Shown: positions 13,540 to 37,699 of the stretch, piece by piece
Position numbering within the stretch: the first letter of the stretch is position 1
Layout of the letters: each line of letters opens with the position of its first letter
Source of the DNA: a phage
Reading direction: 5' to 3' (one strand)
DNA: 44,574 bases
Sequence record: PX063913.1
Translations under genes and position numbers: made by a program
Notes under the pieces: generated by a model
The model's input: only the letters and a program-made list of their open reading frames with translations
What the model was told of the DNA's origin: nothing
The model's database searches: none

Positions 13540-13566
13540 AAAAAGAGGCCCGCAGATTAGCGGGCC
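13540..13566 (-). terminator. Rho-independent terminator (minus strand)
   Basis: On the minus strand GGCCCGC-taatct-GCGGGCC followed by TCTTTTT, after the stop of the acidic protein gene. Confidence 0.55.
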
Positions 13567-13574
13567 GGATAATA

Positions 13575-14517: not shown

Positions 14518-14847
14518 ATGAATATCAACGACGCAATCGAAATGTTAACTAAGACTGTTTGCAGTGAGACTAGCCGGTCATGGGCGTATACCGATGCCGT
14601 GGGGCGGGTGCTATTTGAAATCGAACGTCTGCGCAGTGTCGAAAAAGAATTGCGCGCCAGGCTGGAATTACTCAACGGTACGGCGGCGAGCAAGCTGCAA
14701 AAGCACAATGAAGAAATGGAAGAATATAAAAAACAGGTTATCCGTTTGCGCGATGAGGGAAAGTCATGGGCGATGATCGCGGAGTTGACAGGAATTAATC
14801 AGAGCACCGTGCGCTCCTGGGTACGCAATAACAAAACTTCGAAGTAA
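14518..14847 (+). CDS. Helix-turn-helix DNA-binding regulator
   Basis: C-terminal GKSWAMIAELTGINQSTVRSWVRN is a classic HTH; first gene of the rightward arm; GGAGA RBS. Confidence 0.65.
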   Translation: MNINDAIEMLTKTVCSETSRSWAYTDAVGRVLFEIERLRSVEKELRARLELLNGTAASKLQKHNEEMEEYKKQVIRLRDEGKSWAMIAELTGINQSTVRSWVRNNKTSK

Positions 14848-17537: not shown

Positions 17538-17580
17538 ATATTGGTTGCATCCAGCCTGGCACCCTGCTATATTGGTTGCA
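17538..17580 (+). promoter_or_regulatory. Promoter-like region with two direct ATTGGTTGCA motifs
   Basis: ATATTGGTTGCAT ... TATATTGGTTGCA; TTGCAT, 17-nt spacer, TATATT fits a sigma70 promoter 20-50 nt upstream of the gene at 17601. Confidence 0.45.
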
Positions 17581-17600: not shown

Positions 17601-17780
17601 ATGAAAACCGAAATGGTTAATAAGCGCGAAATCAAGATCGGCGATACGGTAGTCCACAACGGGGAGCTTCGCACTGTGTGCAAGCGAGCGTTTAGCATAG
17701 ATGAATTTATGGGCCTGCTACTTTGGGGCGACAGCTATCGTTTAGGGCATAAACTGGTTGAGAGGGTTACGGAACTATGA
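17601..17780 (+). CDS. Hypothetical small protein
   Basis: ATG at 17601 preceded by AGGAGG; 59 aa; the track ORF extends upstream into the promoter. Confidence 0.55.
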   Translation: MKTEMVNKREIKIGDTVVHNGELRTVCKRAFSIDEFMGLLLWGDSYRLGHKLVERVTEL

Positions 17781-18103
17781 AAGCGATTATCTGGAATTAC
17801 GCAATGGCTATGGCGGCGGCACAAGAAGCGGCGGAGTTCGCCGGTGAAGGAGCGGAAGCGGTCGAAAGACTAGCGGCAGCGTGGTCCGTTGTTCGCGTCA
17901 CGCAGCAGGCCATCGCCTGTATGCTTGAGCGCCGCTTCGACACGATGGCGGAGATCCAGCCGTTGGCGAACGCTATCCAGGACTACGCGCTTGCATTTGC
18001 CCGTGAACGCCTGGCGTATCGCTTCGGGATCGGCGAGACGGCAGTGACAAACGTTGCCAGGATTAAAGCCCAGCGGGAGCTATTCGCCAAGCTTGCGAAA
18101 TAA
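17777..18103 (+). CDS. Hypothetical protein
   Basis: 108-aa ORF coupled by ATGA overlap to the upstream gene. Confidence 0.5.
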   Translation: MKAIIWNYAMAMAAAQEAAEFAGEGAEAVERLAAAWSVVRVTQQAIACMLERRFDTMAEIQPLANAIQDYALAFARERLAYRFGIGETAVTNVARIKAQRELFAKLAK

Positions 18104-18112
18104 GAGGCCAAA

Positions 18113-18382
18113 ATGACCCGTAGACGCGCAAAACAGCTTTCGTGGCATATCCCCCTGCATTGCATACGAATATGGGCTAAGAATGCGAATGCGGGGGACT
18201 CTGTGTACTGGTGCTATCGCGACGACGTTAAGCCGTTGACGCAGACTCGCTACTTGCACCAGTTCGCCGCGCAACACGATTTCAGGGTGCGGACTTCCTT
18301 GCAACCAATGGGGATTCGTATTACATTACGCCGGAAGCCCGCCGTTGAGCGGGCAGGCAAACACTGGAGACTGAGAAAATGA
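18113..18382 (+). CDS. Hypothetical protein
   Basis: 89-aa ORF, AAGAGG upstream; C-terminus HWRLRK. Confidence 0.5.
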   Translation: MTRRRAKQLSWHIPLHCIRIWAKNANAGDSVYWCYRDDVKPLTQTRYLHQFAAQHDFRVRTSLQPMGIRITLRRKPAVERAGKHWRLRK

Positions 18383-18723
18383 TTCGAGTAACCGCACGCC
18401 ACGAGCAGTCGGGGTCCACTTATGACCTTATCGACGTTCGCGGTGCGTTCATCATATTCGGACGGGGCGACGACCGCATGGCGCTGCCGATCGGCATGCT
18501 GAGCGCATACGACTATTTCAAGCATAACGTTCGGTGTGGCGACGTGCTGCGCGACAAGCACACTGGCGAACTATGGACCGTGGCGAGTATTTGGGTGAAA
18601 GACAAACGGCAGCACACGCTACTGCTTGCCCGCCCGGATGGCAAACAGCAAACTATTAACACGATTGGCCTGGTGGACTACACCCGCGTAGGCCGTAACG
18701 CAACCTGGAGACTGAGCAAATGA
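18379..18723 (+). CDS. Hypothetical protein (paralog family)
   Basis: 114 aa; shares GDVLRD...W.V...GLV.Y.RVGR with the gene at 18860; ATGA coupling. Confidence 0.5.
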   Translation: MIRVTARHEQSGSTYDLIDVRGAFIIFGRGDDRMALPIGMLSAYDYFKHNVRCGDVLRDKHTGELWTVASIWVKDKRQHTLLLARPDGKQQTINTIGLVDYTRVGRNATWRLSK

Positions 18724-18863
18724 CACCAGCACTAATGGAGGGATTCTCGCAGAAGTTTATTTCTGTTGATGCCTGCCTAGCAGATTATGAGATGGACGGC
18801 ATCGCTACTGTGTGCGATGGCGACACGAAAACTGCCGATGAGATTGAGGAGACAGAACAATGA
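18720..18863 (+). CDS. Small hypothetical protein (not in ORF track)
   Basis: 47-aa ORF with ATGA overlaps at both ends; GGAGA upstream. Confidence 0.4.
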   Translation: MTPALMEGFSQKFISVDACLADYEMDGIATVCDGDTKTADEIEETEQ

Positions 18864-19390
18864 AATTACTATTCCGCCGCAAATCAGACGGCAAAATCCT
18901 TAGACCAATACAGACCCTTGCGGCACACGTCCGCTTACACCACGCCGCGAGTGATCGGGTTTGGTGGGCGAGTAAGGCAAAGCTGTCGGAGAATTACGAT
19001 ATAGTCACGCATGATATCGAGCGCGGCGATGTGCTGCGTGATATTCGCGACGGCAGTATGTGGATCGTCGAGTATGTCGGGCTTCATGGCCTGCGTATGC
19101 AATCCCGCAAGGATGGCGTCGCCGGTATGACTTACTTCGGCCTTGTCAACTACGAACGAGTGGGCCGCAAATACAGCCTTCGTGACCGCCAGCCGCATGA
19201 GCGCGGTGCAGCCTACGACGCAAGCCAGGTGCAAGCGAAGATGGGCAACGCAGTACGCCAAATCGTCAATCGCTTTGATGCCGTGACGAAAGCACAGCGC
19301 CAGGCTGAGGAGTATGGCGTTGGATTCATCCGCGTCGAACCAGACGGCAGCATGAACGCCATCGACCCGCGCTCGGTGATTCTGAAATGA
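18860..19390 (+). CDS. Hypothetical protein (paralog family)
   Basis: 176 aa; GGAGACAGAACA upstream of the ATG; shares a domain with 18379-18723. Confidence 0.5.
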   Translation: MKLLFRRKSDGKILRPIQTLAAHVRLHHAASDRVWWASKAKLSENYDIVTHDIERGDVLRDIRDGSMWIVEYVGLHGLRMQSRKDGVAGMTYFGLVNYERVGRKYSLRDRQPHERGAAYDASQVQAKMGNAVRQIVNRFDAVTKAQRQAEEYGVGFIRVEPDGSMNAIDPRSVILK

Positions 19391-19533
19391 GTGCGGCGAT
19401 CCGTGATATGCTTCAGCACAACCGCTTCGAGATAGGCGGTCGGGTATTTCGCAATTACTTCGTGGCGCGTGCATGGGCGCGCCATATTGGCAAACCGGAA
19501 GGGGCAATTCGATGCTATACGTCTTCGCGGTAG
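19387..19533 (+). CDS. Small hypothetical protein (not in ORF track)
   Basis: 48-aa ORF starting in an ATGA overlap with the upstream stop. Confidence 0.3.
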   Translation: MSAAIRDMLQHNRFEIGGRVFRNYFVARAWARHIGKPEGAIRCYTSSR

Positions 19534-19613
19534 TATGTGGTGGCAGTCTGGCGGCCCTGGTGCTGTTGGCGTCGGTTATTAGTCTGGTTAAATACCTATG
19601 GGGCAGATTATGA
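19512..19613 (+). CDS. Small hydrophobic peptide (not in ORF track)
   Basis: 33-aa ORF MLYVFAVVCGGSLAALVLLASVISLVKYLWGRL with GGAAGGGG upstream; stop overlaps the next start. Confidence 0.3.
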   Translation: MLYVFAVVCGGSLAALVLLASVISLVKYLWGRL

Positions 19614-19897
19614 TTCATGATGTGATTTATTGGTTTGGTATGGCCAGCATGTTATGCCTGGTTACGGGAGTGCTGGGCGCAATATGGGTATTCCTGGTAT
19701 GGCCCGCCGTGGAAGCCGCCAGCATTACCCGCATGACGTTCGAAATATACAAGCGCCGTGGAATCACGGAGCACCCGACCAGGTTGCGCATGTGGTGGCT
19801 GTGGTATCGGGATATGATAGGCGGTCGAACATTCGAAGCCGTCCGATCATCCAGGTGGGAGTGGAAAGGCGTCGGCAAGTGGTCCATTTTCGATTAA
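19610..19897 (+). CDS. Membrane protein
   Basis: Hydrophobic segments; start taken at ATG 19610 (track ORF begins 19598). Confidence 0.45.
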   Translation: MIHDVIYWFGMASMLCLVTGVLGAIWVFLVWPAVEAASITRMTFEIYKRRGITEHPTRLRMWWLWYRDMIGGRTFEAVRSSRWEWKGVGKWSIFD

Positions 19898-19914
19898 TTA
19901 TGCAAGCGTGATAT

Positions 19915-19949
19915 AGTCCCAGTGAGCTAAAACTTACTGGGACTTTTTT
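19915..19949 (+). terminator. Rho-independent terminator
   Basis: Perfect 9-bp stem AGTCCCAGT/ACTGGGACT with 11-nt loop, followed by T6 directly abutting the holin ATG. Confidence 0.6.
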
Positions 19950-20240
19950 ATGGATAAGCTAAACGAGTGGCTATTCGCCCTAGCATGTCTGGCGGGTGGC
20001 TTCGTAGGCGCACGCATTCATGGTGAGGCTACGAAGGGGCCGCTAAACTTCGTTTTGTATGTGGTAGTCGGCTTCCTGTGTGCCATATTTGGCGCACCGG
20101 CTATTGCCGAGTGGGCTGGTTTGTCGGGTGAGCGCACTGTCGCCGGTTTGGGCTTCGTAACCGCAATCTTCTGGATGCCAATCGCCGACCGGATCAGGGA
20201 GACTATTGCGTCGTTCCGACTTCCGGGGGGTGCAAAATGA
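19950..20240 (+). CDS. Holin-like membrane protein
   Basis: 96 aa with three predicted hydrophobic helices, immediately upstream of the endolysin. Confidence 0.55.
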   Translation: MDKLNEWLFALACLAGGFVGARIHGEATKGPLNFVLYVVVGFLCAIFGAPAIAEWAGLSGERTVAGLGFVTAIFWMPIADRIRETIASFRLPGGAK

Positions 20241-20482
20241 TTATCTCCGTCCTGTTGTTTGTTATCATCGGGGCTTCGTCCCTGTTTAACGTGTATGCGC
20301 CGTCCGTCCAGGATGGCATTTTCGGTCGGGTGCTGTATCTGCTAACGGCAATGATCTGTATTATTGGACTGTTGCAAACCGGAGACGTATCTGATACCAC
20401 CTGGACCGCGTTAATCTGGCTGTTTGCATTGCGCACCCTGCGTAATGCTGTTTTGAATGGGGTAAAACATGCGATTCAGTGA
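20237..20482 (+). CDS. Second small membrane protein (holin or antiholin candidate)
   Basis: 81 aa with multiple hydrophobic helices; GGGGGG RBS; overlaps the endolysin start. Confidence 0.45.
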   Translation: MIISVLLFVIIGASSLFNVYAPSVQDGIFGRVLYLLTAMICIIGLLQTGDVSDTTWTALIWLFALRTLRNAVLNGVKHAIQ

Positions 20483-20960
20483 CAACGGTCTAAGATTCAC
20501 GGCAGCATGGGAGGCTTTCAGCCCGGTGCCGTATTTCGCGACCAAGAAAGAGCAGGCCCGCGGCCTGTACACCTGGGGTTATGGTCATACCGGCACTAAT
20601 CCGCCTCGAAGCATTACCCGCGAGGAAGCGCTGGCACTGCTCAAGCGCGATGTGGCGTATGCCGAGGATTGGGTGAACAAATACGCTCATAAGAGCATTA
20701 ACCAGGCGCAATTTGACGCGCTGGTGGACCTGGTAATCAACGCCGGTCCTGGTCCGATCGTACCGGATGACGTCGCGAATGATTTCGATGATGCGGTACG
20801 GTTGGGCGACTGGGCGAAGGTCCGTGCTACGCTGCCGCTGTTCCGCAAGCAAGGCGGGGAAGTGCTCAAGGGTCTGGTGCGCCGTGCGATCGGCAGACAG
20901 GCGTTGTTTGATGGCAAGCAGTGGGACGTTGCCGAGCGAATCGGTCGTAACGCTGCATAA
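20469..20960 (+). CDS. Endolysin, GH24 lysozyme-like
   Basis: FTAAWEAFSPVPYF...GLYTWGYGHTGT matches the phage lysozyme (T4-type muramidase) catalytic region. Confidence 0.75.
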   Translation: MRFSDNGLRFTAAWEAFSPVPYFATKKEQARGLYTWGYGHTGTNPPRSITREEALALLKRDVAYAEDWVNKYAHKSINQAQFDALVDLVINAGPGPIVPDDVANDFDDAVRLGDWAKVRATLPLFRKQGGEVLKGLVRRAIGRQALFDGKQWDVAERIGRNAA

Positions 20961-20976
20961 TACGAGGTGACACAAT

Positions 20977-21144
20977 ATGTTGAAAAGTATTCTTGATCAT
21001 AATGCGGACGCGCTTGCCGCACTGGCTAAAACCGAAGATCCGGGCGCACGCGCTATCATCGCGGACACTATCAGCCACGCTGGGGTCTTTGACGCGAAGC
21101 TGCCAAGCCCGCCACCGCCGGAAGAACCAGGCCCAGCGGCCTAA
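20977..21144 (+). CDS. Small hypothetical protein (not in ORF track)
   Basis: 55-aa ORF with GAGGTGA RBS, proline-rich C-terminus, followed by a terminator. Confidence 0.4.
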   Translation: MLKSILDHNADALAALAKTEDPGARAIIADTISHAGVFDAKLPSPPPPEEPGPAA

Positions 21145-21150
21145 ACACGA

Positions 21151-21176
21151 AGCCCGGTTAATTCCGGGCTTTTTAT
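21151..21176 (+). terminator. Rho-independent terminator
   Basis: AGCCCGG-ttaatt-CCGGGCT followed by TTTT. Confidence 0.65.
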
Positions 21177-21177
21177 T

Positions 21178-21218
21178 GCTTGACTCGCAACCAACATAGG
21201 GGCCATACTGCAACCAAT
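21178..21218 (+). promoter_or_regulatory. Promoter-like region with two TGCAACCAA motifs
   Basis: TTGACT then CGCAACCAAC and TGCAACCAAT upstream of the small ORF at 21239. Confidence 0.4.
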
Positions 21219-21238
21219 CAACGAGAGGAGTAATCAAG

Positions 21239-21319
21239 ATGGCACGTAAAGATATTTGGGTATTAGCGATCTGGACCACCGCGGCTTTTATCGGCATGGT
21301 TATTTGCGAATTGATATAG
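21239..21319 (+). CDS. Small hydrophobic peptide (not in ORF track)
   Basis: 26-aa ORF MARKDIWVLAIWTTAAFIGMVICELI with strong GAGAGGAG RBS. Confidence 0.4.
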   Translation: MARKDIWVLAIWTTAAFIGMVICELI

Positions 21320-21380
21320 CCCGCCGCCATATGGACCGTGGTATATTGTCCACGGTCCACTAATCAGGGATTAATTAAAT

Positions 21381-22523
21381 ATGCACCCGCAAACTAAAAT
21401 TACCGATGAGCAATTGATCGCAGAAATTCAGGCAGGGACTACGGTTAAAGAGATTGCGAAGAAATACGGCATTGCACTTCGAAATGTCTACATGCGAAAA
21501 GCCCGCCTGTCGAAGAAAGGGATTGGTCACGGTAACGATGCCGTAATCCGTAAGCGCGTTGCCGATGGCTTTGGCGTTAAGCGCGTATCCGCCCTGGTGC
21601 GCGGCAATGGCGAAGAGGTCATGTCGTGGGTTATCACTGAGCAGGACAAGGAGCGACAGCTTGAAGCAATGCGCGCCGTTGTCGATGGCATGAACAGCGA
21701 AATCACACCGGCAGCACCAGTAAGCGCCACGCCTATCCCGATCCAGGCACTTGACCTACTCAACCTGTACACCGTGTCCGACTTCCACCTGGGCATGTTG
21801 GCATGGGGTGAGGAGACTGGCGAGGACTGGGATATGGCAATCGCTGAAGACTTGTTTTACCGCTGGTTTGTCGAAGCCTTCGCCCGCGCACCCGACGCGG
21901 GAACTGCCGTTATCAATATCCTCGGAGATATGGCCCACTTTGATAGCCTCGACGCCGTCACACCAGCAAGCGGTCACGTACTGGACGCCGACACCAGATA
22001 CCAGAAGTTGGTCCGCTATATGATCCGCATGGTGCGCAACGTGGTAGACCTGGCGCTGCAAAAACACCACAAAGTCAAACTGCTAATCGTCCAGGGTAAT
22101 CATGACGAATCGGGTATGATTTGGCTTGCTGAGATGTTCAACACGCTGTACGAGAACGAGCCGCGCGTCGATGTGGACACGTCCCCGGACGTCTACAAAA
22201 TGGTGCAGCACGGTAAGACCACGCTATTTTTCCACCACGGGCACAAAGCGCGATTCGATGCTATCGAGCAGGTTATGATCGCTAAATTCAGACAGGCTTT
22301 CGGATCCAGTGAGTACAGCTACGCGCACGTAGGCCATTTGCACCACCAGAAGATTGTCGAGTCCCGCAACATGATTGTTGAGCAGCACAGGACGCTCGCA
22401 GCGAAAGACGCCTACGCCAGCCGTGGTGGTTGGATGAGCGGTCGCAGCGCAAACGTCATCACCTACAGCGCCAACTACGGCGAAGTAGCGCGCTTAACCA
22501 TTAGCCCGGAAATGTTGAAGTAA
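21381..22523 (+). CDS. HTH domain fused to calcineurin-like metallophosphoesterase
   Basis: N-terminal TVKEIAKKYGIALRNVYMRKARL (HTH-like); phosphoesterase motifs LGDMAHFD, VQGNHDES, FHHGH. Confidence 0.6.
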   Translation: MHPQTKITDEQLIAEIQAGTTVKEIAKKYGIALRNVYMRKARLSKKGIGHGNDAVIRKRVADGFGVKRVSALVRGNGEEVMSWVITEQDKERQLEAMRAVVDGMNSEITPAAPVSATPIPIQALDLLNLYTVSDFHLGMLAWGEETGEDWDMAIAEDLFYRWFVEAFARAPDAGTAVINILGDMAHFDSLDAVTPASGHVLDADTRYQKLVRYMIRMVRNVVDLALQKHHKVKLLIVQGNHDESGMIWLAEMFNTLYENEPRVDVDTSPDVYKMVQHGKTTLFFHHGHKARFDAIEQVMIAKFRQAFGSSEYSYAHVGHLHHQKIVESRNMIVEQHRTLAAKDAYASRGGWMSGRSANVITYSANYGEVARLTISPEMLK

Positions 22524-22544
22524 CGGCAACCCATAAGCCTCCAA

Positions 22545-22569
22545 GCCCGCCGATTTGGTGGGCTTTTTT
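22545..22569 (+). terminator. Rho-independent terminator
   Basis: GCCCGCC-gattt-GGTGGGC (one G-U pair) followed by T6. Confidence 0.55.
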
Positions 22570-22653
22570 GTGCCTGTTATAATCCACCTTAGATGGCAGG
22601 GCCGTCTCCTATGTTGCCGATGGTCGGCGCATATGAACAAAAGGGCTTATATC

Positions 22654-23205
22654 ATGGCAGAAATCAAAGTTAAGGGCCGACGCGCCAAACTGGACGGACG
22701 AGTAGCAGTAACCCCGCGCCGTAAACCAGGCGAGCAAACCGAGCATACCAATCTCGGACCTGAAATCGAGTACGGAAAGCGCCGTAAAGGCGGCAAATGT
22801 GGACGCCCTACTGACTACCGATCCGTTTACTGCGACCAGCTTCGCCGCTATTTTGCCGACGCCGACGCCTGGCAGGTCAACTACTCCGATAAAGGCGCTG
22901 CGCAAGTAATCCCACGCAACAAAATGCCAACCTTCGGGCGATTTGCCGCGGAAATCGGCGTGGGCGTCGCTTGCCTGTATCGCTGGGCGCGTGCGCATGA
23001 GGAGTTTGCCGAGGCGATGGCGGACGCAATGGAACTGCAGAAAACCTTCCTGATGGAAGCTGGCGGGGTGACCATCGCGGCGGGCTTCGCTACATTCCTG
23101 CTTAAAGCAAACCACGGCGTCCGCGACGATGTCCCGCTGGATGACGACGAAGATGATAACGGCGACGTCGTTGTCGAACCTACCGGCAAAGGCCAGGGCG
23201 AATAA
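22654..23205 (+). CDS. terS: Terminase small subunit
   Basis: Start taken at MAEIKV (ATG 22654), downstream of the terminator; FGRFAAEIGVGVACLYRWARAHEEFAEAMADAMELQK resembles TerS; directly precedes TerL. Confidence 0.7.
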   Translation: MAEIKVKGRRAKLDGRVAVTPRRKPGEQTEHTNLGPEIEYGKRRKGGKCGRPTDYRSVYCDQLRRYFADADAWQVNYSDKGAAQVIPRNKMPTFGRFAAEIGVGVACLYRWARAHEEFAEAMADAMELQKTFLMEAGGVTIAAGFATFLLKANHGVRDDVPLDDDEDDNGDVVVEPTGKGQGE

Positions 23206-24590
23206 TGCGTAACTATGCGGCAGAACACCGCGCACTGGAACGCGCGATCGCAAAGCGCAACAGACCACCACGCCCGACACGCGTTGCGCAGGCGGTGCGT
23301 CTTTACCAGCCTGATTGCTTGCCGCACCAGGTTGAACTATTGCGCGACACAAAGACTAAAATCCTCGGCCTGTGCTCTGGCTTCGGCGGCGGCAAGTCAT
23401 GGGTCGCAGCCCGTAAGGTAATCCAGCTTTTAACCCTGAACCCTGGTCATGATGGCATCGTTACAGAGCCGACTATTCCACTCCTGGTTAAGATCATGTA
23501 CCCGGAATTGGAAAAGGCTTTCGACGAGGCTGGCTTCCGGTGGAAGTTCAACAAGCAGGACAAGATCTATAGCGTTCTGGTGAAAGGCAAATGGACTCGC
23601 GTTATCTGTGAGTCGATGGAGAACTATACCCGCCTGATCGGGGTTAACGCCGCGTGGATTGTTGCCGATGAGTTCGACACCACGAAGCAAGACGTCGCAA
23701 TGGCGGCGTATCACAAATTGCTCGGTCGTCTGCGTGCGGGCGTGGTCCGTCAGTTTGTCATCGTGTCCACGCCGGAAGGCTTCCGGGCGATGTATCAAAT
23801 TTTCGAGGTGGAGAAGGATAGCCAGAAACGTTTGATCCGGGCGAAGACCACGGACAACCACCATTTACCGGCAGACTTTATCGACACGCTGCGCAGTCAG
23901 TACCCGGCTAACCTGATCGACGCGTACCTGAACGGCCTATTTGTTAACCTTACGTCGGGCGCGGTGTACAAGATGTTTAATCGCGAGGAGAACGCCAGCA
24001 CCGAAGAAGTACAACCGGAAGACACGCTGATTATCGGTATGGACTTTAACGTCACGAAAATGGCGGCGGTCGTGTACGTCAGACGGCAGCGTACCACCGA
24101 GAACAAGGAGTTCCGCGACGAGATTCACGCCGTGGATGAATTCGTGGACCTGTTTGATACCCCGGCTATGATTGAAGCGATCGAGGAGCGCTACCCCGAT
24201 CATTGCGCTGCCGGTCGTGTTGTCGTGTATCCGGATAGCAGCGGCAAATCCCGCAAAACGGTTAACGCTTCGTCGTCCGATATCGCGCAACTGGAAGATG
24301 CGGGCTTCGAGGTGGAATACGACAGCGTTAACCCGCCTGTGAAAGACCGATTGATCGCGATGAATACGATGATGTGCAACTCGAAGGGCGTGCGCCAGTA
24401 TTTTGTCAACCTGGATAAATGCCCTACACTAGCGAAATGTCTGGAACAGCAGGTGTACGACCTGAAGAAAGGCGAGCCGGATAAAACCGCCGGGGTGGAC
24501 CACATGAACGATGCCGCGGGCTACCCTATTGCGCACTTGTTCCCTGTGATTCGTCCGATCGCCGTTGTTCCAACTGTAGACTTCTACTAA
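23205..24590 (+). CDS. terL: Terminase large subunit
   Basis: Walker A-like LCSGFGGGKSW, Walker B WIVADEFD, C-terminal nuclease-like region; 461 aa. Confidence 0.9.
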   Translation: MRNYAAEHRALERAIAKRNRPPRPTRVAQAVRLYQPDCLPHQVELLRDTKTKILGLCSGFGGGKSWVAARKVIQLLTLNPGHDGIVTEPTIPLLVKIMYPELEKAFDEAGFRWKFNKQDKIYSVLVKGKWTRVICESMENYTRLIGVNAAWIVADEFDTTKQDVAMAAYHKLLGRLRAGVVRQFVIVSTPEGFRAMYQIFEVEKDSQKRLIRAKTTDNHHLPADFIDTLRSQYPANLIDAYLNGLFVNLTSGAVYKMFNREENASTEEVQPEDTLIIGMDFNVTKMAAVVYVRRQRTTENKEFRDEIHAVDEFVDLFDTPAMIEAIEERYPDHCAAGRVVVYPDSSGKSRKTVNASSSDIAQLEDAGFEVEYDSVNPPVKDRLIAMNTMMCNSKGVRQYFVNLDKCPTLAKCLEQQVYDLKKGEPDKTAGVDHMNDAAGYPIAHLFPVIRPIAVVPTVDFY

Positions 24591-24601
24591 GGAAACCGAC
24601 C

Positions 24602-26122
24602 ATGACCGTTAACGTTGACAACCAGCACCCGCTCTATGCTCGCATCGCGCCAGAGTGGAAAATGATCCGTGACTGCGTAGCAGGGGAGCGCGCCGTGAAG
24701 GCGTGCGGGCCATTGTACCTGCCACACCCAGCCAGCGGCGACACTACCGACCCGAAATCGCGTGCGCGCTATAAGGCGTATAAGCAACGTGCAGTCTTCC
24801 TTAACGCCACTGCCCGCACACTGAATGCACTGTTAGGCGTCGCCTTCGCCAAACCGGTGAGTATGGACCTTTCCGGGGCAATGGCTGACCTGATCGAAGA
24901 CGTAGACGGCAGCGGGATGCCCCTGGCGCAACTCCTGCGCGGCGCTATGTCGGAAGTGCTGCAATCAGGCCGTGCCGGGTTTATGGTCGACTACGACCGC
25001 CAGGCGCATTTTGACGAACTGGGTAACGTAGTACCGCAGACCGCCGCTGAAATGGCAGCACACCGCCCGCTTATCCGCCTGTATACGGCTGAACAGATCA
25101 TCAACTGGCGGCAGACCCACGGCGTCGATACGCTAATAGTGCTGAAGGAGACGGACGAAATCAGCACCGAAGACCCGGACGACTTCGCAAACCACGAAGT
25201 AACGATCTGGACCGAGCTTCGCATGATTGCAGGTAAGGCCCACGCCCGCCGCTGGTTTTACAATGCGGACACGTCAGAAGTGCAAATGGACTTGCCGCGA
25301 GGATTCACCCGCACCGATCTCGTACCGCTGGTGGATGCTGCCGGTAATGCGCTTACTCAACTGCCATTTTGCTGGTGTGGTGCTGTGGACAACAACGCGA
25401 CGCCGGACGCCGCACCGCTGGCGGATATTGCGTCCATCAACATTAAGCACTACAACGCCGAAGCAGACGTCGCCGAGATTGCGCACATTGTGGGCCAACC
25501 TACACTCATTGCGACCGGTCTGACCCAATCATGGGCGGATAAAAACCTGAAGGGTGGCATCGCGCTCGGGGCAACTAAGGGCGTTATCCTGGGCCAGAAC
25601 ATGGACGCTAAACTGCTTCAGGCGGAGGAGAGAAACCTGTCAGTTGCGCTGTGTGAGCGACGCGAGTTGCAAATGGCTAAACTGGGCGCGGCCCTGGTCG
25701 AGAAGGGGACCGCACCTAAGACGGCAACTGAAGCGGCCTACGATGCGCAGACTGATAACAGTATCCTGTCACTGATTGCCGGTAACGTTGAGAAGGCTTT
25801 CAACCGTGCGCTGCAGATCGTCAAGCTGTTCACGGGAGACACCGCAGATCAACGTGTAACGCTGAATAAGTTCTACACCGAAATCACGGTTGACGCGCAG
25901 CTTATGACCGCAATGATGGCTGGTGTGCAGACCGGTACGGTCCGTCTGGCGGACTTTATCAAGTGGATGATGGCCCAGGGCGTTATTGACGACTCGCAAA
26001 CCGTCGAGCAGGTGGAAGACGAACTGCGAAATCAGAATCCATTGCCTCAAATGTCCCCGGATGCGGTAGAATCGACCGAAGAAGCCCCGGACAAGGTAGC
26101 GGACAATGGCGAAGACAATTAA
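24602..26122 (+). CDS. Portal protein
   Basis: 506 aa immediately after TerL; N-terminal YARIAPEWKMIRDCVAGERAVKACGPLYLPHP resembles DUF4055-type portals. Confidence 0.75.
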   Translation: MTVNVDNQHPLYARIAPEWKMIRDCVAGERAVKACGPLYLPHPASGDTTDPKSRARYKAYKQRAVFLNATARTLNALLGVAFAKPVSMDLSGAMADLIEDVDGSGMPLAQLLRGAMSEVLQSGRAGFMVDYDRQAHFDELGNVVPQTAAEMAAHRPLIRLYTAEQIINWRQTHGVDTLIVLKETDEISTEDPDDFANHEVTIWTELRMIAGKAHARRWFYNADTSEVQMDLPRGFTRTDLVPLVDAAGNALTQLPFCWCGAVDNNATPDAAPLADIASINIKHYNAEADVAEIAHIVGQPTLIATGLTQSWADKNLKGGIALGATKGVILGQNMDAKLLQAEERNLSVALCERRELQMAKLGAALVEKGTAPKTATEAAYDAQTDNSILSLIAGNVEKAFNRALQIVKLFTGDTADQRVTLNKFYTEITVDAQLMTAMMAGVQTGTVRLADFIKWMMAQGVIDDSQTVEQVEDELRNQNPLPQMSPDAVESTEEAPDKVADNGEDN

Positions 26123-27209
26123 TCAATATATGGCGGATCGCATGATTCGCCGTCACATCTTCACCCAGCGCCTGAGCAATGACCAGGCGCGGAGGGTGTT
26201 GGCTATGTGGGAGAAGTTCCGGCCCACGTTACTGGGTAAGCTGACCGAGTTACTTGATGGTAAAAAGTCCATGAGCAACAAGGCGCTTACCACCCTGTTA
26301 ACGCAACTCGACAAGACCGTAAAAACGGAACTGCGCACCGAGTTTAAGGTGCTGGCTGAAAGCCTCCAGGAGTTTGCCGATACCGAGGCTGATTATCTTG
26401 CCGACACGCTAACGGCAGCGATCCAGCCGGTGGTCGCCGTACCGGCTGTCGAGGTGGTTGGCGTAGTTACCGGTGCGCAGATCGCAGCGACTGCGATGAA
26501 AAACCCGTTCCAGGGTAATACGATGATGCAATGGCCCGATTCATTGTCTGAGTGGACCAGGACGCAGATCGGCAATCAGGTGCGCGCCGGATTCATCCAG
26601 GGCAAGCCGACTATGGAAATTATCGCTGACGTGAGGCGCGCGCTAGGCGGTCGTAGTGCGCAAGCTATCTCGAGCGTTGTTAAATCCGCAGTAAACCACT
26701 ATGCGGCGACCGCCCGCGAACTAATGGTAAAAGCAAATGACGATATTCTCGAAGGTCGCCAATGGTTATCTACATTGGACACGCATACTTCTCCCATGTG
26801 CCAGCTACGCGATCGCCTGTTTTATCCGGTTGATGTTACTCCCGACACCAAAGGAAAGCGCGGCGGGAAAGTGGTGGCTGGATCACAATATGGCGCTGGT
26901 CCAGGCAAGCTACATTATTGCTGCCGCTCGACGGAGACGTGGAAAGTCAAAGGTATGGAAGATTGGCCCAGTGGTAAGCGTCCGGCACTGAAGGCCGACG
27001 CAGGCAGATTGCTGAGTGAGCAGGTCGACGCGCAGACGGATTTCTTCTCATGGGTACAGCGCCAGCCGCGCCATATCCTGGAAGAATTATACGGAGTGCA
27101 ACGCGCCGACCAGATTATGCGCGGCGTGAAAGTGCCGAAGATGTTCACCGATTCCGGCGAACTAATGACTATCGCACAGCTTAAAAACCGGGGGTTATGG
27201 CGTGATTAA
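26106..27209 (+). CDS. Head morphogenesis protein (Mu F / SPP1 gp7-like)
   Basis: Position after the portal; region around TSPMCQLRDR...CCRSTE resembles the Phage_Mu_F family. Confidence 0.6.
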   Translation: MAKTINQYMADRMIRRHIFTQRLSNDQARRVLAMWEKFRPTLLGKLTELLDGKKSMSNKALTTLLTQLDKTVKTELRTEFKVLAESLQEFADTEADYLADTLTAAIQPVVAVPAVEVVGVVTGAQIAATAMKNPFQGNTMMQWPDSLSEWTRTQIGNQVRAGFIQGKPTMEIIADVRRALGGRSAQAISSVVKSAVNHYAATARELMVKANDDILEGRQWLSTLDTHTSPMCQLRDRLFYPVDVTPDTKGKRGGKVVAGSQYGAGPGKLHYCCRSTETWKVKGMEDWPSGKRPALKADAGRLLSEQVDAQTDFFSWVQRQPRHILEELYGVQRADQIMRGVKVPKMFTDSGELMTIAQLKNRGLWRD

Positions 27210-27531
27210 ATATGCAGCGATTGGACTGGTTATCGGTCTGGCGATAGGATTCTGGCTAGGCGACTCCTATCGCGCTGGCGTAGTGGCGGAGGCGGCGCAA
27301 GAAGCGCAAGCCCAAGCCCAACGGCAGCAAACTAAAGTAATCGAGCGCTCCGTGCAGGCAGAACAAGCCCGCGACGTGGAATACCGGACTATCACAAAAG
27401 AGGTTGTTAAATATGTTACGCGTCCTAACCGCCCTGATTGTAGTTTTGACGCTGAGCGCGTGCGGATCAAGCAGCGTGCCGTTGACGCCGCTAACGGAGT
27501 CGGCACTGCGACCGCCGTGCAAGTTCGATAA
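27202..27531 (+). CDS. i-spanin (Rz-like)
   Basis: GTG start; N-terminal transmembrane helix AAIGLVIGLAIGFWLG followed by a Q/A-rich coiled-coil-like region; the o-spanin is embedded in the +1 frame. Confidence 0.6.
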   Translation: MIKYAAIGLVIGLAIGFWLGDSYRAGVVAEAAQEAQAQAQRQQTKVIERSVQAEQARDVEYRTITKEVVKYVTRPNRPDCSFDAERVRIKQRAVDAANGVGTATAVQVR

Positions 27532-27643
27532 CCCGTCTGCGGACCCCGACGAAGATTTGATGATTGACGTGAAAAATATGGAATGCGGGGCGAAGCTGAG
27601 GGCGCAGGTGTTGGAGTTGCAGCAGATAATTAAGGGGCCGTAA
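27413..27643 (+). CDS. o-spanin (Rz1-like outer-membrane lipoprotein)
   Basis: ATG 27413 with AAGAGG at 9 nt; lipoprotein signal MLRVLTALIVVLTLSAC with lipobox LSAC; proline-rich mature part; overlaps and extends past the i-spanin. Confidence 0.6.
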   Translation: MLRVLTALIVVLTLSACGSSSVPLTPLTESALRPPCKFDNPSADPDEDLMIDVKNMECGAKLRAQVLELQQIIKGP

Positions 27644-27654
27644 TGGCCCCTTTT
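27634..27654. terminator. Bidirectional rho-independent terminator
   Basis: GGGGCC-gtaat-GGCCCC then TTTT; sits between the convergent o-spanin and the minus-strand gene. Confidence 0.65.
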
Positions 27655-27657
27655 CCG

Positions 27658-28422
27658 TTAGCGAGGAATGCCGCAAATCTCGTTGAGTGTTTTCACATCC
27701 AGCGCCACCGCCGTGGATTTTGGCTTGTCCGGGTAAGGGATGAATTGCTCAACTTCAGGCCATGCCTTGATCAGCTTCTTATCGGTATTGTGCATATCCA
27801 GCACGCCGGTAACAGTTAGTTTGAACGCGTCATACTTAGCCCGCAACTCGCGGCGGGCCTTGTCGTTACGGTCCAGGCGCTTGCAGAAATCATGGTCCGC
27901 CGGGTAGTCTATACGGCCGCGTGGCTTATATATCGGCAGCGCTTTCCCATCCTCGTCCAACTCGCACACTGACGCTAACATAATTTCCTCATACCCAGGT
28001 ACGATATCGCCGAGATCAGGAGACAGCTTATTCATGTATTTATACTCCCAGTATCCGCGATGTACGCGGTATTGGCGACCGTCACCGCTCAAGGACAAGG
28101 TGCGAACATTTCCGCCTGCGTTGATTTCGAAAGTGGCGTCGTAAACGCTGCCGATACCTTTCGGGCGGTCGGTGTTATAACTATACGTCGCCTTGTTGGT
28201 GTATACACAGACGCCGTACATCTGCGACGGGTCATCGCCGATTGCTTCAATGCGCGCGAGTAGCTCGGCGAACGTGCGAATGCCTTCTGGCATACAGTCC
28301 AGCGTAATGGCGTACGCCAGGTCGCGCGAGTCCATCATTATTGATTTGGCTTCTGTCGCGATTTCGTGGTCGCGCAGGATGTTAGCCAGGATCTGATTTT
28401 TAATGTCTTTCGTCAGTCTCAT
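27658..28422 (-). CDS. Hypothetical protein, reverse-oriented gene inside the structural module
   Basis: 254 aa from ATG 28422 (MRLTKDIKN..., GAGGA upstream); own promoter region with ATTGGTTGCA motifs and a bidirectional terminator; no recognisable motifs. Confidence 0.55.
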   Translation of the reverse strand: MRLTKDIKNQILANILRDHEIATEAKSIMMDSRDLAYAITLDCMPEGIRTFAELLARIEAIGDDPSQMYGVCVYTNKATYSYNTDRPKGIGSVYDATFEINAGGNVRTLSLSGDGRQYRVHRGYWEYKYMNKLSPDLGDIVPGYEEIMLASVCELDEDGKALPIYKPRGRIDYPADHDFCKRLDRNDKARRELRAKYDAFKLTVTGVLDMHNTDKKLIKAWPEVEQFIPYPDKPKSTAVALDVKTLNEICGIPR

Positions 28423-28444
28423 TTTTGTGTCCTCGTTGTTGGTG

Positions 28445-29273: not shown

Positions 29274-29278
29274 GCAAA

Positions 29279-30471: not shown

Positions 30472-30489
30472 CGGGCGCACATCCCAAAT

Positions 30490-30514
30490 GGGCGGGCTTA
30501 TGCCCGCCTTTTTT
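30490..30514 (+). terminator. Rho-independent terminator
   Basis: GGGCGGGC-ttat-GCCCGCC followed by T6. Confidence 0.75.
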
Positions 30515-30529
30515 ATAGGAGTGAATGAA

Positions 30530-31030
30530 ATGTATGGCGACCCGCAAACATTTGTCGATTATGCCGCGGCGCGAGGCGTTGAAGTCACGCTGAGCGATGC
30601 AACGCGACACCTTACCGTAGTTAATGACTTCCTTAACGGCATCAACTGGATCGGAGAACCCGCAGACCAGACCGGAATCGACGCATGGCCCCGCATAAAT
30701 TACCCATCGGACGGTAAGCCGGTGCGCGACACGCTCACTGAAGTTGTGGCAGTAGTGCCTGCAGGGCAGATCGTAGATTTTGCATCAATCCCCATTGCCG
30801 TCGAGCAAGCCGTTTACAGGTTGGCGATGTTGGTGGCGGACGAGGTCGATATTTCTCCTGTTGGCAGTGGTAAGGAGACTATCCGCGAAACTGTTGGCCC
30901 GATCACGATGGAATATGACCCTGCGACGATTGGTAGCGGTGTCTCGTTCCCGTGGTGGGATGGCTTGCTGGGCCACTGGATTGACTCCAACGGCAACGCA
31001 GCGGGTAATTTTGACGTATTCCGGGGGTGA
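30530..31030 (+). CDS. Head-tail connector / head completion protein (putative)
   Basis: ATG 30530 preceded by AGGAG; first gene after the capsid terminator; assignment by position only. Confidence 0.4.
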   Translation: MYGDPQTFVDYAAARGVEVTLSDATRHLTVVNDFLNGINWIGEPADQTGIDAWPRINYPSDGKPVRDTLTEVVAVVPAGQIVDFASIPIAVEQAVYRLAMLVADEVDISPVGSGKETIRETVGPITMEYDPATIGSGVSFPWWDGLLGHWIDSNGNAAGNFDVFRG

Positions 31031-34421: not shown

Positions 34422-37064
34422 ATGGCAGATCAGGCAGCGGGCATCACGCTCAAGGCGGACGTCGCGCAAATTAAAACGGCGAATACTGTGCTGGACACAT
34501 TTGCGCAGAAATCCGAGAACACAGAACAGAAAGTCAAAAAATTAAACGACACCCTCGGCAAGTCGAAAAAGGTCACGGGTGACGCCGCTGGCGGAATGGA
34601 AAAGTTAGCGACTGAATCTCAGCGTGCCGCCGACGGCATGACGAAACAGGAGCGACTCGCCAGCCGATTAGGCATGTCGACCAAAAACCTGGGATTCGCA
34701 TCGCGGAACGCCGCATTCCAGTTACAGGATATCGCGGTTACGCTTGAGATGGGTATGCCGGTGCACCGCGTCATGCTTCAGCAGCTACCACAGCTAACCG
34801 GCGCATTTGGCGGACTAGGTAACACGCTGCGTTATGTTGCCGGCTTCCTCGGCCCCGTAGGGATCGGCCTTGCCGCCGTAACGGCGACGTTAGGCGTGGG
34901 TGTTGCAATTACGTCCCGAGCAGAGAACCAGGTAGCGGCGCTTAATAAGACGCTGGCACTTTCCGGTAACATTTCCGGCCTGACGGCAAACCAGATCCTG
35001 GTGCTATCCGAGAATGCCGAGCGCATGGGTGGGTCGTTCCGCAAGACGCGTGACACAATCCAGGCGCTGGCGGCGGCGGGTGTGAAAGCGGGTGGTGACT
35101 TCGGCGCACTGGCGAAGGTAGTGAATGACTTCGCGAAGGTGTCCAGCCAGCCGATCGAGGATGTGGTAGCGGCGGTGGCGAAGCTGTCAACCGACCCCGT
35201 TGGCGGACTGCGTGCGCTGGCGGATAAGTATCACGTCGTAAACGAAGCGCAGATCCAGCAGGTACAGTCGCTCGTTGATGCGGGTCGTGAGACAGACGCA
35301 GTTGCGTTGGCTAACAAAACAGCCGCTGCGTCGTTCACCAGCATGACCAATGAGATCAAGGCGAACATGGGTACGCTTGAGCGATCTATGAACGTCGTCA
35401 CATCGGCAGCCAAATCGATGTGGGACGCTATCCTGGATGTGGGCCGCGCGCAGTCCTCCAATGAGTCCGAGATGAAAGCGCGCGAATCACTCCAGCGCAT
35501 GACAACGGCTTACTATGCCGAGATGAAAGCGGTAAACGCTGCCGGTGGAGTGATGACCGAAGCGCAGAAAGCGCGTATTAACATGCTTTATAGCGAACTG
35601 GTCGCCCAGGAGAAAGTAGTGGCGTCGCTCACCCTGCGTAACCGTGCGGAGCGTGACAACGCCCGTGCCGCGGACGAATCCGCAAAGGCGAACGAGGAGG
35701 CCAACCGCACCGCCCGCGACCGCGCTGCGTTCGAGAAGGAGTACGCGACCAACGCGAAGAAGCGCGCCGACGAGATCGCCCGCCTCAATTTGCTGAATAA
35801 ACGCGGCGTAATTGATGAGAAAGAACTAGCCGAGGCGGTGAAGCAGGTAAACGAGCGCTACAAAGACCCGGCCCCGAAAAAGGCCGCGGCTGTTCGCGTG
35901 GATGCCGGTATGAAAATGTTGGAGGTTGCACGGAGCGAACTGGCCCAGCTTCGAGAATCCGGCAAGCAGATCGAAGCCAACGCGTCTACGCAGACCCGCA
36001 CGCAACGCGCTCAAGCGGCCCTAAACAAGCTGATCGCCGACAATGAGCAGTTAATCGCCGCGAGCAAAGAAAGGGCGCTAACGGCAGCAGAGAAGCAGCA
36101 GATGGTCGAATTCGGACGCGTGAAGGAAGTGCGCGAGCAGATCGTCGAAGAAGCCAAACTACTGGACGCGAAAGAGAAGCAGGTTAAGGCGCACGCGCAG
36201 ATCGACGCCTTCGTTAAGAACCAGAATGCCGAGCTAAAAGCCACCGCGGCTGGCTATGCGCTTTCCACTCGAGAAGCGGCAAACCTGCGTGAAGAATTGC
36301 AGCTAATCGACCGCCTGAAGCGTGTAGGCGCTAACGATACCGATATTGACAAGGCGGTGTCTAAGCTGCGGGAAGTGCAGGAGGCGCAGACCGGCGCTAA
36401 CGCCTCGCTATGGGATGGATTCAGTCGCGGGCTTAAGGATAGCGTGGATGAAATGGGTAACGGATATACGCAGATGGCGTCGCTCACTAAATTCACGTTC
36501 AGCGCTATGCAAGACACGATGAACGAGTTTTTCGAGACGGGCAAGATTAACGCGAAGGATATGGTCAAATCCATCCTGAGCGAATTAATCAAGCTGGCTA
36601 CATCGCAGGCATTCAAGTCCATCGTTAGCGCATTCGGTGGTGACGGCGGCAAAAACGGATTGTTCGGCGCTATCTTCTCTGGCCTGACTAAGAATGCGGA
36701 CGGCGGAGCGTACGCAGGAGGCAATCTAGCAGCCTATTCGGGGAAAGTGGTAAGCCAGCCTACCTTTTTCAGTTATGGCGTCCAGGCGTTCGCTAAGGGC
36801 GCAGGGTTGATGGGTGAGGCTGGACCCGAGGCCATCATGCCACTGAAGCGCGGGCCGGACGGTAAACTGGGCGTTGCCGCGTCTGGCGCAGGCGGTGGTA
36901 TGGTCGTGACGACTAACGTTTACACTGGGACCGGTAAAACGGATACCAGTGTCAGCGGGCCGGACCCCCGTACCGCGCAGGCGTTCGGCAAGCAAATCAC
37001 CGAGGCGGTGAAGGCTGAGATCGTGAAAGCGACGAAACCGGGTGGTGTACTTTACAAACGATGA
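34422..37064 (+). CDS. Tail tape measure protein
   Basis: 880 aa, long helical/coiled-coil regions and glycine-rich C-terminal part, downstream of G/GT; AAGGGGGA RBS. Confidence 0.9.
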   Translation: MADQAAGITLKADVAQIKTANTVLDTFAQKSENTEQKVKKLNDTLGKSKKVTGDAAGGMEKLATESQRAADGMTKQERLASRLGMSTKNLGFASRNAAFQLQDIAVTLEMGMPVHRVMLQQLPQLTGAFGGLGNTLRYVAGFLGPVGIGLAAVTATLGVGVAITSRAENQVAALNKTLALSGNISGLTANQILVLSENAERMGGSFRKTRDTIQALAAAGVKAGGDFGALAKVVNDFAKVSSQPIEDVVAAVAKLSTDPVGGLRALADKYHVVNEAQIQQVQSLVDAGRETDAVALANKTAAASFTSMTNEIKANMGTLERSMNVVTSAAKSMWDAILDVGRAQSSNESEMKARESLQRMTTAYYAEMKAVNAAGGVMTEAQKARINMLYSELVAQEKVVASLTLRNRAERDNARAADESAKANEEANRTARDRAAFEKEYATNAKKRADEIARLNLLNKRGVIDEKELAEAVKQVNERYKDPAPKKAAAVRVDAGMKMLEVARSELAQLRESGKQIEANASTQTRTQRAQAALNKLIADNEQLIAASKERALTAAEKQQMVEFGRVKEVREQIVEEAKLLDAKEKQVKAHAQIDAFVKNQNAELKATAAGYALSTREAANLREELQLIDRLKRVGANDTDIDKAVSKLREVQEAQTGANASLWDGFSRGLKDSVDEMGNGYTQMASLTKFTFSAMQDTMNEFFETGKINAKDMVKSILSELIKLATSQAFKSIVSAFGGDGGKNGLFGAIFSGLTKNADGGAYAGGNLAAYSGKVVSQPTFFSYGVQAFAKGAGLMGEAGPEAIMPLKRGPDGKLGVAASGAGGGMVVTTNVYTGTGKTDTSVSGPDPRTAQAFGKQITEAVKAEIVKATKPGGVLYKR

Positions 37065-37071
37065 TAAAATG

Positions 37072-37099
37072 GCCCTCACATCCATCGTGGGGGCTTTTT
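37072..37099 (+). terminator. Rho-independent terminator/attenuator
   Basis: GCCCTCAC-atccatc-GTGGGGGC followed by T5 directly abutting the next ATG. Confidence 0.5.
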
Positions 37100-37699
37100 A
37101 TGTCACAAGGTACGATCACATTAACTAAGGGTAGTAAGACCGTTACAGGCGCGGGGACGGCGTTCCTTAGCGAGATCGGGAAGGTACTCGTATTCGCCCG
37201 CATCGACGGCAACGACTACACCGGCAAAATTGCGGCGTTCAACTCGAACACGGTCATTACACTGAAAGATAACTGGGCCGGTCCAACGAAATCCGGTGCG
37301 GTATATGAGCTAATCGAAGCACACGACCCCCGATCAAACGAATGGCCCTATTACTGGCACATGCAATTGCAGGGCGGCGGCGACGTGCAGTTAGCTTTCC
37401 GGTCGGAGGAATTGCAATTCGGTAACGGTTACGGTCAGAACATCGCGGACGGCCCGAACGCCGAAACGAAACAATTTCCCGTGCAATTCGTCGGACTGAC
37501 TACCGACAAGTGGTGTAACCCTAAGCTGGTTTACAACTTCCTTCGCGGGCACTTTGTAAAACCGTTCATCGTCACCGCGCCGGATGGCGAGACAGGTTTA
37601 TTCGTGGTCGAGCGTTCGAGCTTGTCATACACTGACAACGGGCACTACACGGCAACGGTATCCGCCACCCTTAAAACAGCTATTGGATTCGTAAGATGA
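37100..37699 (+). CDS. Minor tail protein (gpM-position)
   Basis: ATG 37100; N-terminus GTITLTKGSKTVTGAGTAF resembles the N-terminus of the tail fibre at nt 1; first gene after the tape measure. Confidence 0.5.
   Translation: MSQGTITLTKGSKTVTGAGTAFLSEIGKVLVFARIDGNDYTGKIAAFNSNTVITLKDNWAGPTKSGAVYELIEAHDPRSNEWPYYWHMQLQGGGDVQLAFRSEELQFGNGYGQNIADGPNAETKQFPVQFVGLTTDKWCNPKLVYNFLRGHFVKPFIVTAPDGETGLFVVERSSLSYTDNGHYTATVSATLKTAIGFVR

Follow-up and report, generated by a model that had tools for sequence, protein, structure and literature searches.

A terminator-like hairpin set against the start codon at two Dhillonvirus genes: possible overlap of terminator, ribosome site, and promoter

The sequence record PX063913.1, a phage DNA of 44,574 nucleotides (nt) that was analyzed over its whole length and is called the window below, contains two places at which a terminator-like hairpin and its T-tract run directly into the start codon of the next gene. 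The first (site 1) precedes the holin gene, and the second (site 2) precedes the first gene after the tape measure gene. At both, the only purines resembling a Shine-Dalgarno sequence lie within the 3' arm of the hairpin, and an extended -10-like motif sits on the hairpin's upstream edge. We propose that each site may be a translational lock of the T4 gene e type fused to an intrinsic terminator, with a promoter placed in the hairpin itself; judged from sequence, this model has about an even chance of being correct. The terminators as such are known already. The record MK373791 (vB_EcoS_WFI) annotates a "putative transcriptional terminator" at both sites (2261-2286 and 19861-19883 in that record) and also marks four terminators with a GGGGCC stem, described below, while saying nothing of a ribosome-site overlap or a -10 motif. 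The interest lies in the overlap of terminator, ribosome site, and probable promoter. The features of the two sites are as follows.

19909-19917, plus strand: extended -10-like motif TGATATAGT; its final 3 nt also open the site 1 hairpin
19915-19944, plus strand: terminator-like hairpin AGTCCCAGTGAG-CTAAAA-CTTACTGGGACT, 12 pairs (one G-U), 6-nt loop
19944-19949, plus strand: T6 tract leading directly into the holin ATG (19950); T5-T7 in relatives
19950-20240, plus strand: holin gene, 96 amino acids (aa), phrog_2359 holin; opens the lysis cassette
37062-37070, plus strand: extended -10-like motif TGATAAAAT; its TGA is the tape measure stop codon, and its end touches the site 2 hairpin
37071-37095, plus strand: terminator-like hairpin GGCCCTCAC-ATCCATC-GTGGGGGCT, 9 pairs (two G-U), 7-nt loop
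37095-37099, plus strand: T5 tract leading directly into the ATG at 37100; T5-T9 in relatives
37100-37699, plus strand: minor tail protein gene, 199 aa, matching phrog_9922 over 1-199 of 199

The first-pass annotation had noted that the ATG follows the terminator T-run directly at these two genes, and the letters bear this out (T6 then ATG 19950; T5 then ATG 37100). It had also placed the sole Shine-Dalgarno-like purines in the 3' arms. They are indeed there, as GGGA at 19939-19942 and GGGGG at 37089-37093, and between each stem and its ATG there are only T's. Are these the true start codons? Both are. The holin start at 19950 is the first start codon in its open reading frame (ORF); the gene is followed by a second holin-family gene (20237-20482, phrog_2508 holin) and then by the endolysin (phrog_7; Pfam Phage_lysozyme). 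The site 2 gene, first after the tape measure gene (34422-37064), encodes a protein with a lambda gpM-like domain at its C terminus (PF05939 Phage_min_tail). An alternative start for it at 37061, an in-frame ATG that overlaps the tape measure stop codon as ATGA and that the ORF lister used (37061..37699), was rejected because loop and T-run indels of -1, +1, and +4 in relatives break its frame. The end-to-end profile match at 37100 also contradicts it.

The window is the genome of an Escherichia coli phage of the genus Dhillonvirus (HK578-like siphoviruses). A megablast search with positions 19000-38000 returned 159 phage records, nearly all of them Escherichia or Shigella Dhillonvirus at 90-95% identity, and the gene order agrees with that of annotated relatives. 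Replication genes run leftward (~1.7-14.3 kilobases [kb]), a rightward block begins at 14.5 kb, and the lysis cassette (19950-21200) is followed by terminase, portal, head, and tail genes through 43278. The relatives read amount to ~35 of the ~160 public Dhillonvirus genomes; conservation was followed in ~20 sequences at site 1 and in 18 distinct sequences plus 11 metagenome contigs at site 2. At both sites the nearest public record (97-98% nt identity, with the gpM-like protein at 100% aa identity) is titled "Acinetobacter phage NJ01," and a "Campylobacter phage" is also among the matches (records OQ221563.1 and MG065640.1); both host labels appear doubtful for such phages.

Both hairpins fold more stably than shuffled sequence. 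The minimum free energy is -24.1 kcal/mol at site 1 (z = -6.6) and -20.1 kcal/mol at site 2 (z = -4.2), and at neither did any shuffled sequence fold equally well. Each has the makings of an intrinsic terminator, namely a G+C-rich stem of ~5-14 pairs, a short loop, and a U-rich tract on the 3' side, and in the long RNA each pairs its Shine-Dalgarno-like purines (GGGA and GGGGG in the 3' arm), as expected of a T4 gene e-type lock, which pairs the Shine-Dalgarno sequence, the AUG, or both. A search of the whole window against Rfam at gathering thresholds gave no matches. Among 35 starts tabulated, the most stable upstream structures belong to these two sites and to one leftward gene, which has a normal Shine-Dalgarno sequence after its terminator. 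The same is true of other terminators (30490, 33323, and 13566 on the minus strand), where an ordinary Shine-Dalgarno follows the T-run; the abutting arrangement is therefore specific to the two sites.

This comparison bears on the idea that the hairpins are mainly 3'-end stabilizers or processing barriers for the upstream messengers, with the closeness of the ATG reflecting nothing but genome compaction. Hairpins do stand 3' of the major capsid gene (30490) and the major tail gene (33323) too, where an abundant messenger could plausibly have use for a stable 3' end, and the stems, judging by their lengths, are too short for RNase III. Yet the ordinary Shine-Dalgarno after the T-run at other hairpins implies that compaction alone does not force a ribosome site into a stem, and a distant relative keeps the junction with a stem of unrelated sequence. 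We regard this explanation as quite unlikely.

How well are the two arrangements conserved? The junction of hairpin, T-run, and ATG is present in every relative examined, with only T (rarely C) between stem and ATG. Site 1 is nearly invariant within the main lineage. In a lineage that is ~70% identical at the nucleotide level (LM40P1, Ioannina, and one metagenomic genome), the loop has been rewritten and the flanking genes have diverged; the stem is preserved by two matching changes, the gain of a C in the 5' arm and A to G in the 3' arm. The TGATATAGT motif is unchanged in all relatives, this lineage included. In the window the upstream gene ends at 19897, leaving a 17-nt gap before the hairpin. 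Teewinot and Pubbukkers carry a different gene upstream of the holin, yet they retain ~78 nt before the holin ATG, a block that holds the TGATATAGT motif and ~50 nt upstream of the predicted transcription start site.

Site 2 occurs in 18 distinct versions, among which the loop varies freely and changes in the stem keep pairing (U-G to C-G or U-A; C-G to U-G). A formal count over 14 distinct sequences scored 95% of cells as paired, and the changes were one-sided and wobble-compatible only. The TGATAAAAT motif is invariant across Dhillonvirus sequences and reads TGATAAACT in a distant relative, and the spacing between G-run and ATG stays at 6-10 nt across relatives. A distant relative whose downstream protein has 52% aa identity and a different N terminus carries an unrelated stem, AACCCCC/GGGGGTT, followed by T6 and ATG, so that the same junction recurs. 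A degenerate-pattern scan anchored on the tape measure C terminus yielded only one distant lineage (L032/L064) from viral contigs and no new variants from metagenome contigs. The U-tract is degraded to TCTTCT or TTTTCT in EK99P-1 (L022/L070), L021/L050, and L024/L045, all of which retain the upstream motif and the stem as well as an ATG directly after the tract. It is therefore not strong termination that is most tightly constrained at site 2, and termination strength there probably varies between isolates.

What would such a hairpin mean for translation? In read-through RNA, the calculated cost of opening positions -16 to +5 is 17.5 kcal/mol at site 1 and 20.4 kcal/mol at site 2. In RNA that begins at the predicted start sites, the same calculation gives 4.5 and 6.3 kcal/mol. 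The first-pass annotation had reasoned that translation of both genes depends on read-through or hairpin melting. For read-through RNA the calculated costs agree with that reasoning, but as a statement about the sole messenger it is doubtful because an extended -10-like motif, invariant and of a class that is enriched between genes, lies on the upstream edge of the hairpin. A second class of messenger, starting inside the hairpin, appears at least as likely. An independent promoter had been expected downstream instead. Between the T-tract and the gene there is no room for one at either site, and the sequence of the gene start is not -10-like; the -10-like motif is found on the other side, at the upstream hairpin edge.

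The motifs TGATATAGT and TGATAAAAT fit the extended -10 pattern of sigma-70 promoters, in which a TG at -15/-14 is separated by one base from a hexamer that has A at -11 and T at -7, and so does a third that also touches a hairpin:

33314-33322, plus strand: TGTTAATAT, abutting the GGGGCC/GGCCCC hairpin at 33323-33339; 3' of the major tail gene, with a downstream gene that has its own GGAG

Transcription starts ~7 nt beyond a -10 hexamer. With this spacing the predicted starts fall at ~19924, ~37077, and ~33329, in the distal 5' arm or the loop. The predicted range is ~19923-19926 at site 1 and ~37076-37080 at site 2, implying leaders of ~25 and ~22 nt, which lie inside the range of ~20-34 nt implied by several other candidates in the window.

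Is this placement more than coincidence? The pattern TGnTAnnnT ends no more than 3-4 nt from the stem edge at 3 of 12 terminator-like hairpins (those at 19915, 33323, and 37071), against a mean of 0.07 when the 40 nt upstream of each hairpin are shuffled (P = 5e-5). An independent, unsupervised hairpin finder listed 24 candidates and returned the identical three cases. Plain -10 hexamers (at least 5 of 6 matches, with A2 and T6 required) abut 5 of 15 intergenic hairpins on both strands, where 0.27 would be expected. The extended motif, counted as TGnTAnnnT with at least 4 of 6 hexamer matches, occurs 10 times on the sense strand of the 3.1 kb of intergenic DNA in the 30-kb rightward region. 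Dinucleotide shuffles contain 1.55 ± 1.25, and none of 2,000 reached 10; the count is 2 on the antisense strand of these segments and 7 in the 27 kb of coding sequence. The other intergenic copies, at 17565, 21339, 22575, 28508, 34377, and 44494, are conserved in relatives and lie upstream of genes.

These figures also speak to the suspicion that chance inverted repeats have simply met chance motifs. Short GC-rich inverted repeats with T's behind them are common, and overall a simple scan gives similar numbers in shuffled sequence. The z scores of the two folds (-6.6 and -4.2), the adjacency P value of 5e-5, and the count of GGGGCC..GGCCCC stems (4 against 0.02 expected) all tell against it, and conservation across the genus while loops and flanks vary effectively refutes it. 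Chance is thus hardly credible as an explanation.

In the model that we propose, each hairpin would be packed into the 22- to 26-nt leader of the next gene and would do three jobs. (i) It would end or attenuate incoming transcripts, from the middle genes at site 1 and from the tape measure gene at site 2. (ii) On read-through RNA, it would keep the ribosome-binding site of the next gene paired, so that translation would be poor. (iii) Its 5' edge would carry an extended -10 sigma-70 promoter, with a start ~7 nt past the hexamer in the distal 5' arm. An RNA started inside the hairpin would lack most of the 5' arm, would form no terminator, and would expose the Shine-Dalgarno-like purines and the AUG. 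The sequence shows the hairpins and their conservation, the true start codons, the motif with its geometry and enrichment, and the calculated gap in accessibility; that the motifs fire as promoters is inferred, as are the start positions and the termination efficiency of the hairpins. A broader formulation is tentative and falls somewhat short of an even chance. It holds that an element of ~35 nt may combine a terminator for the upstream unit, a translational lock on read-through RNA, and the first transcribed stretch of an extended -10 promoter that overlaps them and whose transcripts escape both; that Dhillonvirus may use it repeatedly, before the holin, tail chaperone, and tail-tip genes and before two or more leftward genes, with a form lacking the U-tract at the Kagunavirus holin; and that it may represent promoter-terminator coupling in reversed order, with the start upstream of the termination site. 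The two leftward cases are as follows.

4861-4838, minus strand: terminator-like hairpin preceded with no gap by TATATT (4867-4862), which is part of a TTGCAT-N17-TATATT promoter-like pair
13566-13547, minus strand: terminator hairpin with TATTAT 2 nt upstream of the stem (13547-13574)

The pair at 4861 has a design identical to that of a free-standing promoter-like site at 17541-17573. Since the leftward hairpins (4838-4867 and 13547-13574) are also abutted by -10-like hexamers, the order of promoter and then hairpin is not confined to the late genes. A further observation comes from the Kagunavirus PDP21P8 (L094), in which a perfect TATAAT lies 1 nt before a terminator-like hairpin, GAGAGGGGC-TTCG-GTCCCTCTT, at 7361-7396; this may be another -10-abutted hairpin in a different genus.

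Could the two sites instead be plain leaky terminators or attenuators within long operons, with inert -10-like motifs and downstream genes transcribed by read-through only? This is the main rival, and we consider it a real possibility, if on the improbable side. Translation would then proceed by hairpin breathing, by a standby 30S subunit, by S1 acting on the U-tract, or by re-initiation of upstream ribosomes. For a holin and for tail-tip proteins, which are needed in few copies, the low yield would be fitting. At site 2 the tape measure stop codon lies 6 nt before the hairpin and 36 nt before the ATG, distances at which termination-reinitiation is conceivable; at site 1 the hairpin begins 18 nt after the upstream stop codon, out of reach of a terminating ribosome. 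The constant spacing of 6-10 nt between G-run and ATG fits a 3' arm that serves as Shine-Dalgarno sequence in whichever RNA. Against this reading stands the calculated opening cost of 17-20 kcal/mol. It also leaves unexplained the invariance of TGnTAnnnT and its fixed position at three hairpins, the strand-specific enrichment of the motif between genes, and the retained 78-nt block before the holin.

Several points weigh against the promoter-in-hairpin model, and some of them favor leaky terminators directly. The -35 regions are poor (2-3 of 6 matches at site 1), so any activity would have to come from the extended -10 element by itself, and the lack of a good -35, like the marking of terminators only in the WFI record, speaks for the leaky-terminator reading. 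The degraded U-tracts at site 2 (TTTTCT and TCTTCT) imply weak termination and common read-through there. At the same site, TGATAA doubles as a tandem stop codon and its A-run is complementary to the U-tract; these two roles could account for the motif without any promoter. Stem covariation is weak: no double compensatory changes were found in the site 2 stem, and shuffle controls were not exceeded on pair-count measures, so strict covariation cannot serve as proof. The adjacency and enrichment tests were devised after the motif had been noticed. A -10-like GATAAT also abuts the hairpin at 27632, where a rightward promoter makes no obvious sense. When a whole Kagunavirus genome was passed through the same hairpin and extended -10 pipeline, the count was 0 of 15, with no extended -10 abutting a U-tract hairpin, and the fused design is therefore not general. 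Many siphovirus tail genes are expressed from a single long late transcript. Finally, the literature on Dhillonvirus or HK578 promoters, terminators, and transcriptomes offered nothing usable, with no transcript 5' or 3' ends for the genus; the sole RNA sequencing paper involving a Dhillonvirus analyzed host transcripts only.

Why would such an element be worth having? If the promoters are real, neighboring transcription units would be insulated in almost no space, since only the dedicated promoter would give a translatable RNA, and the holin would be safeguarded from premature lysis, as T4 lysozyme is. The hairpin element would in that case also be a compact insulator part for synthetic biology. 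If they are not, the two sites are ordinary leaky terminators in a tightly packed genome. There is a warning for annotation as well: the first ATG of an ORF may sit in or at a terminator and be wrong, as at 37061 and 30488. The latter concerns the ORF 30488..31030, whose first ATG falls within the terminator at 30490-30509; an in-frame ATG at 30530 lies 8 nt after AGGAG and is likely the true start. Public records differ on this gene, with the long form in HK1 and the short form in WFI.

The terminators with GGGGCC stems are a separate matter. The first-pass annotation had counted four with a shared GGGGCC-N4/5-GGCCCC stem, and a search for GGGGCC-N3-8-GGCCCC gave exactly these four matches in the window (1714, 27634, 33323, and 43286, with N = 4 or 5), where 0.02 would be expected. 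Besides the stem at 33323, introduced above, they are as follows.

1714-1729: GGGGCC-GCAC-GGCCCC, a symmetric terminator between convergent genes
27634-27650: GGGGCC-GTAAT-GGCCCC, between convergent genes; its basal A-T is G-C in relatives
43286-43301: GGGGCC-AGAT-GGCCCC, between convergent genes

The three between convergent genes read AAGGGGCC-loop-GGCCCCTT, the same on either strand, as bidirectional terminators should. The family is conserved across the genus: in seven other Dhillonvirus genomes the stem recurs, with different loops, at three or four of these positions. A mobile or repeated element was considered and rejected: beyond the stem and the A/T flanks nothing is shared, and the positions are fixed across genomes. 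By their sequence and setting, these appear to be ordinary terminators with a common, all-G/C palindromic stem, three of the four of them bidirectional.

Two further observations touch on regulation. A 9-mer, TTGGTTGCA, has 13 exact copies in the window against ~0.3 expected on a rough estimate; with one mismatch allowed there are 21, compared with 11.6 in shuffles. It is found at 2960-2981, 4869-4894, 11403, 14322, 17541-17580, 18300, 21209, 28445-28467, and 44549. Almost every copy lies between genes, and many occur in pairs, inverted at 2960/2973 and direct at 4894/4877, 17541/17572, and 28467/28453. At two sites the 9-mer gives the TTGCAT-N17-TATATT pair, with its second copy lying across the -10/+1 region, and it is likely an operator or promoter element for a phage regulator. 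Who might read it? The first rightward gene (14518-14847, plus strand) encodes 109 aa with a match to Sigma70_r4_2 of 26.9 bits (cut-off, 25.7) and to HTH_23; its label in HK1 is "transposase." The product is a candidate DNA-binding regulator and possibly the partner of TTGGTTGCA or of the promoters that lack a -35.

How do the two sites compare with known systems? In lambda, the terminator tR' and Q antitermination lie upstream of the S holin, and the S ribosome site is not inside tR'. The Dhillonvirus hairpin at site 1 resembles tR' in standing directly before the lysis cassette, where the late genes begin. One could therefore imagine lambda-like processive antitermination, with the pre-holin hairpin as the counterpart of tR' and the hairpins mattering for unmodified polymerase only; the long rightward late cluster, with ~7 more terminator-like hairpins, does recall the lambda late operon. 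Unlike lambda, the window has no recognized Q-like protein and no pR'/qut leader: the five small proteins encoded upstream (17777-19897) match unnamed PHROGs only and no Pfam family, none of them recognizable as a Q-like or other antiterminator, and between 19897 and the hairpin there is no room for a leader of the pR'/qut type. Antitermination would also leave the buried ribosome site unsolved, and we judge it very unlikely.

The closest precedent for a buried ribosome site is found in T4. Genes e (lysozyme), soc, 49, and I-TevI have their ribosome sites hidden in a stem on long early transcripts (McPheeters et al. 1986; reviewed in PMC3014915, section 29), and late promoters within the DNA for the 5' strand of that stem give short, well-translated transcripts (PMC3014915, section 29). 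The Dhillonvirus sites are similar in that the Shine-Dalgarno and AUG of a lysis gene are buried, a candidate -10 lies on the 5'-strand DNA, and a large gap in accessibility is predicted between long and short RNAs. They differ in three respects. (i) The candidate promoters are of the sigma-70 extended -10 type, whereas those of T4 are gp55 late promoters (TATAAATA). (ii) The Dhillonvirus hairpins carry a U-tract and should also terminate. (iii) One of the two cases is a tail gene.

A variant of the T4 arrangement may exist in Kagunavirus. The holin of K1ind1 and its relatives is homologous to that of the window (46% aa identity), and the two leaders share no nucleotide similarity. The Kagunavirus leader has a 9-base-pair stem, with TG[C/G]TATCCT overlapping its 5' arm and the Shine-Dalgarno sequence GGAGGA forming its 3' arm, 5 nt ahead of the start. 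The arrangement is kept in 7 records, with the variable base at the free "n" position of the motif. It differs from the Dhillonvirus sites in having no U-tract, a 22-nt loop, and a TTG start codon. Lacking a U-tract, the Kagunavirus hairpin would therefore be a pure translational lock.

Promoter-coupled terminators, finally, have been described as widespread; in these, the -10 lies just past the T-tract, and the termination site is followed ~10 base pairs later by the transcription start (Fletcher et al., bioRxiv 10.64898/2026.08.19.745784). The Dhillonvirus sites resemble them in that the promoter and terminator of adjacent tandem units would share a few dozen base pairs, and the published order itself occurs once in the window:

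22543-22565, plus strand: terminator hairpin with a T-tract; 5 nt further on comes a perfect extended -10, TGTTATAAT (22575-22583), ahead of the small terminase gene

Sites 1 and 2 show the opposite order. Where the published -10 would lie they have the start codon, so that the arrangement of Fletcher et al. is seen only at 22543/22575; the candidate -10 instead lies upstream of the stem, and the predicted start is ~20-25 nt upstream of the termination site. If the promoters at the two sites are real, they would represent a second geometry for the coupling of bacterial promoters and terminators.

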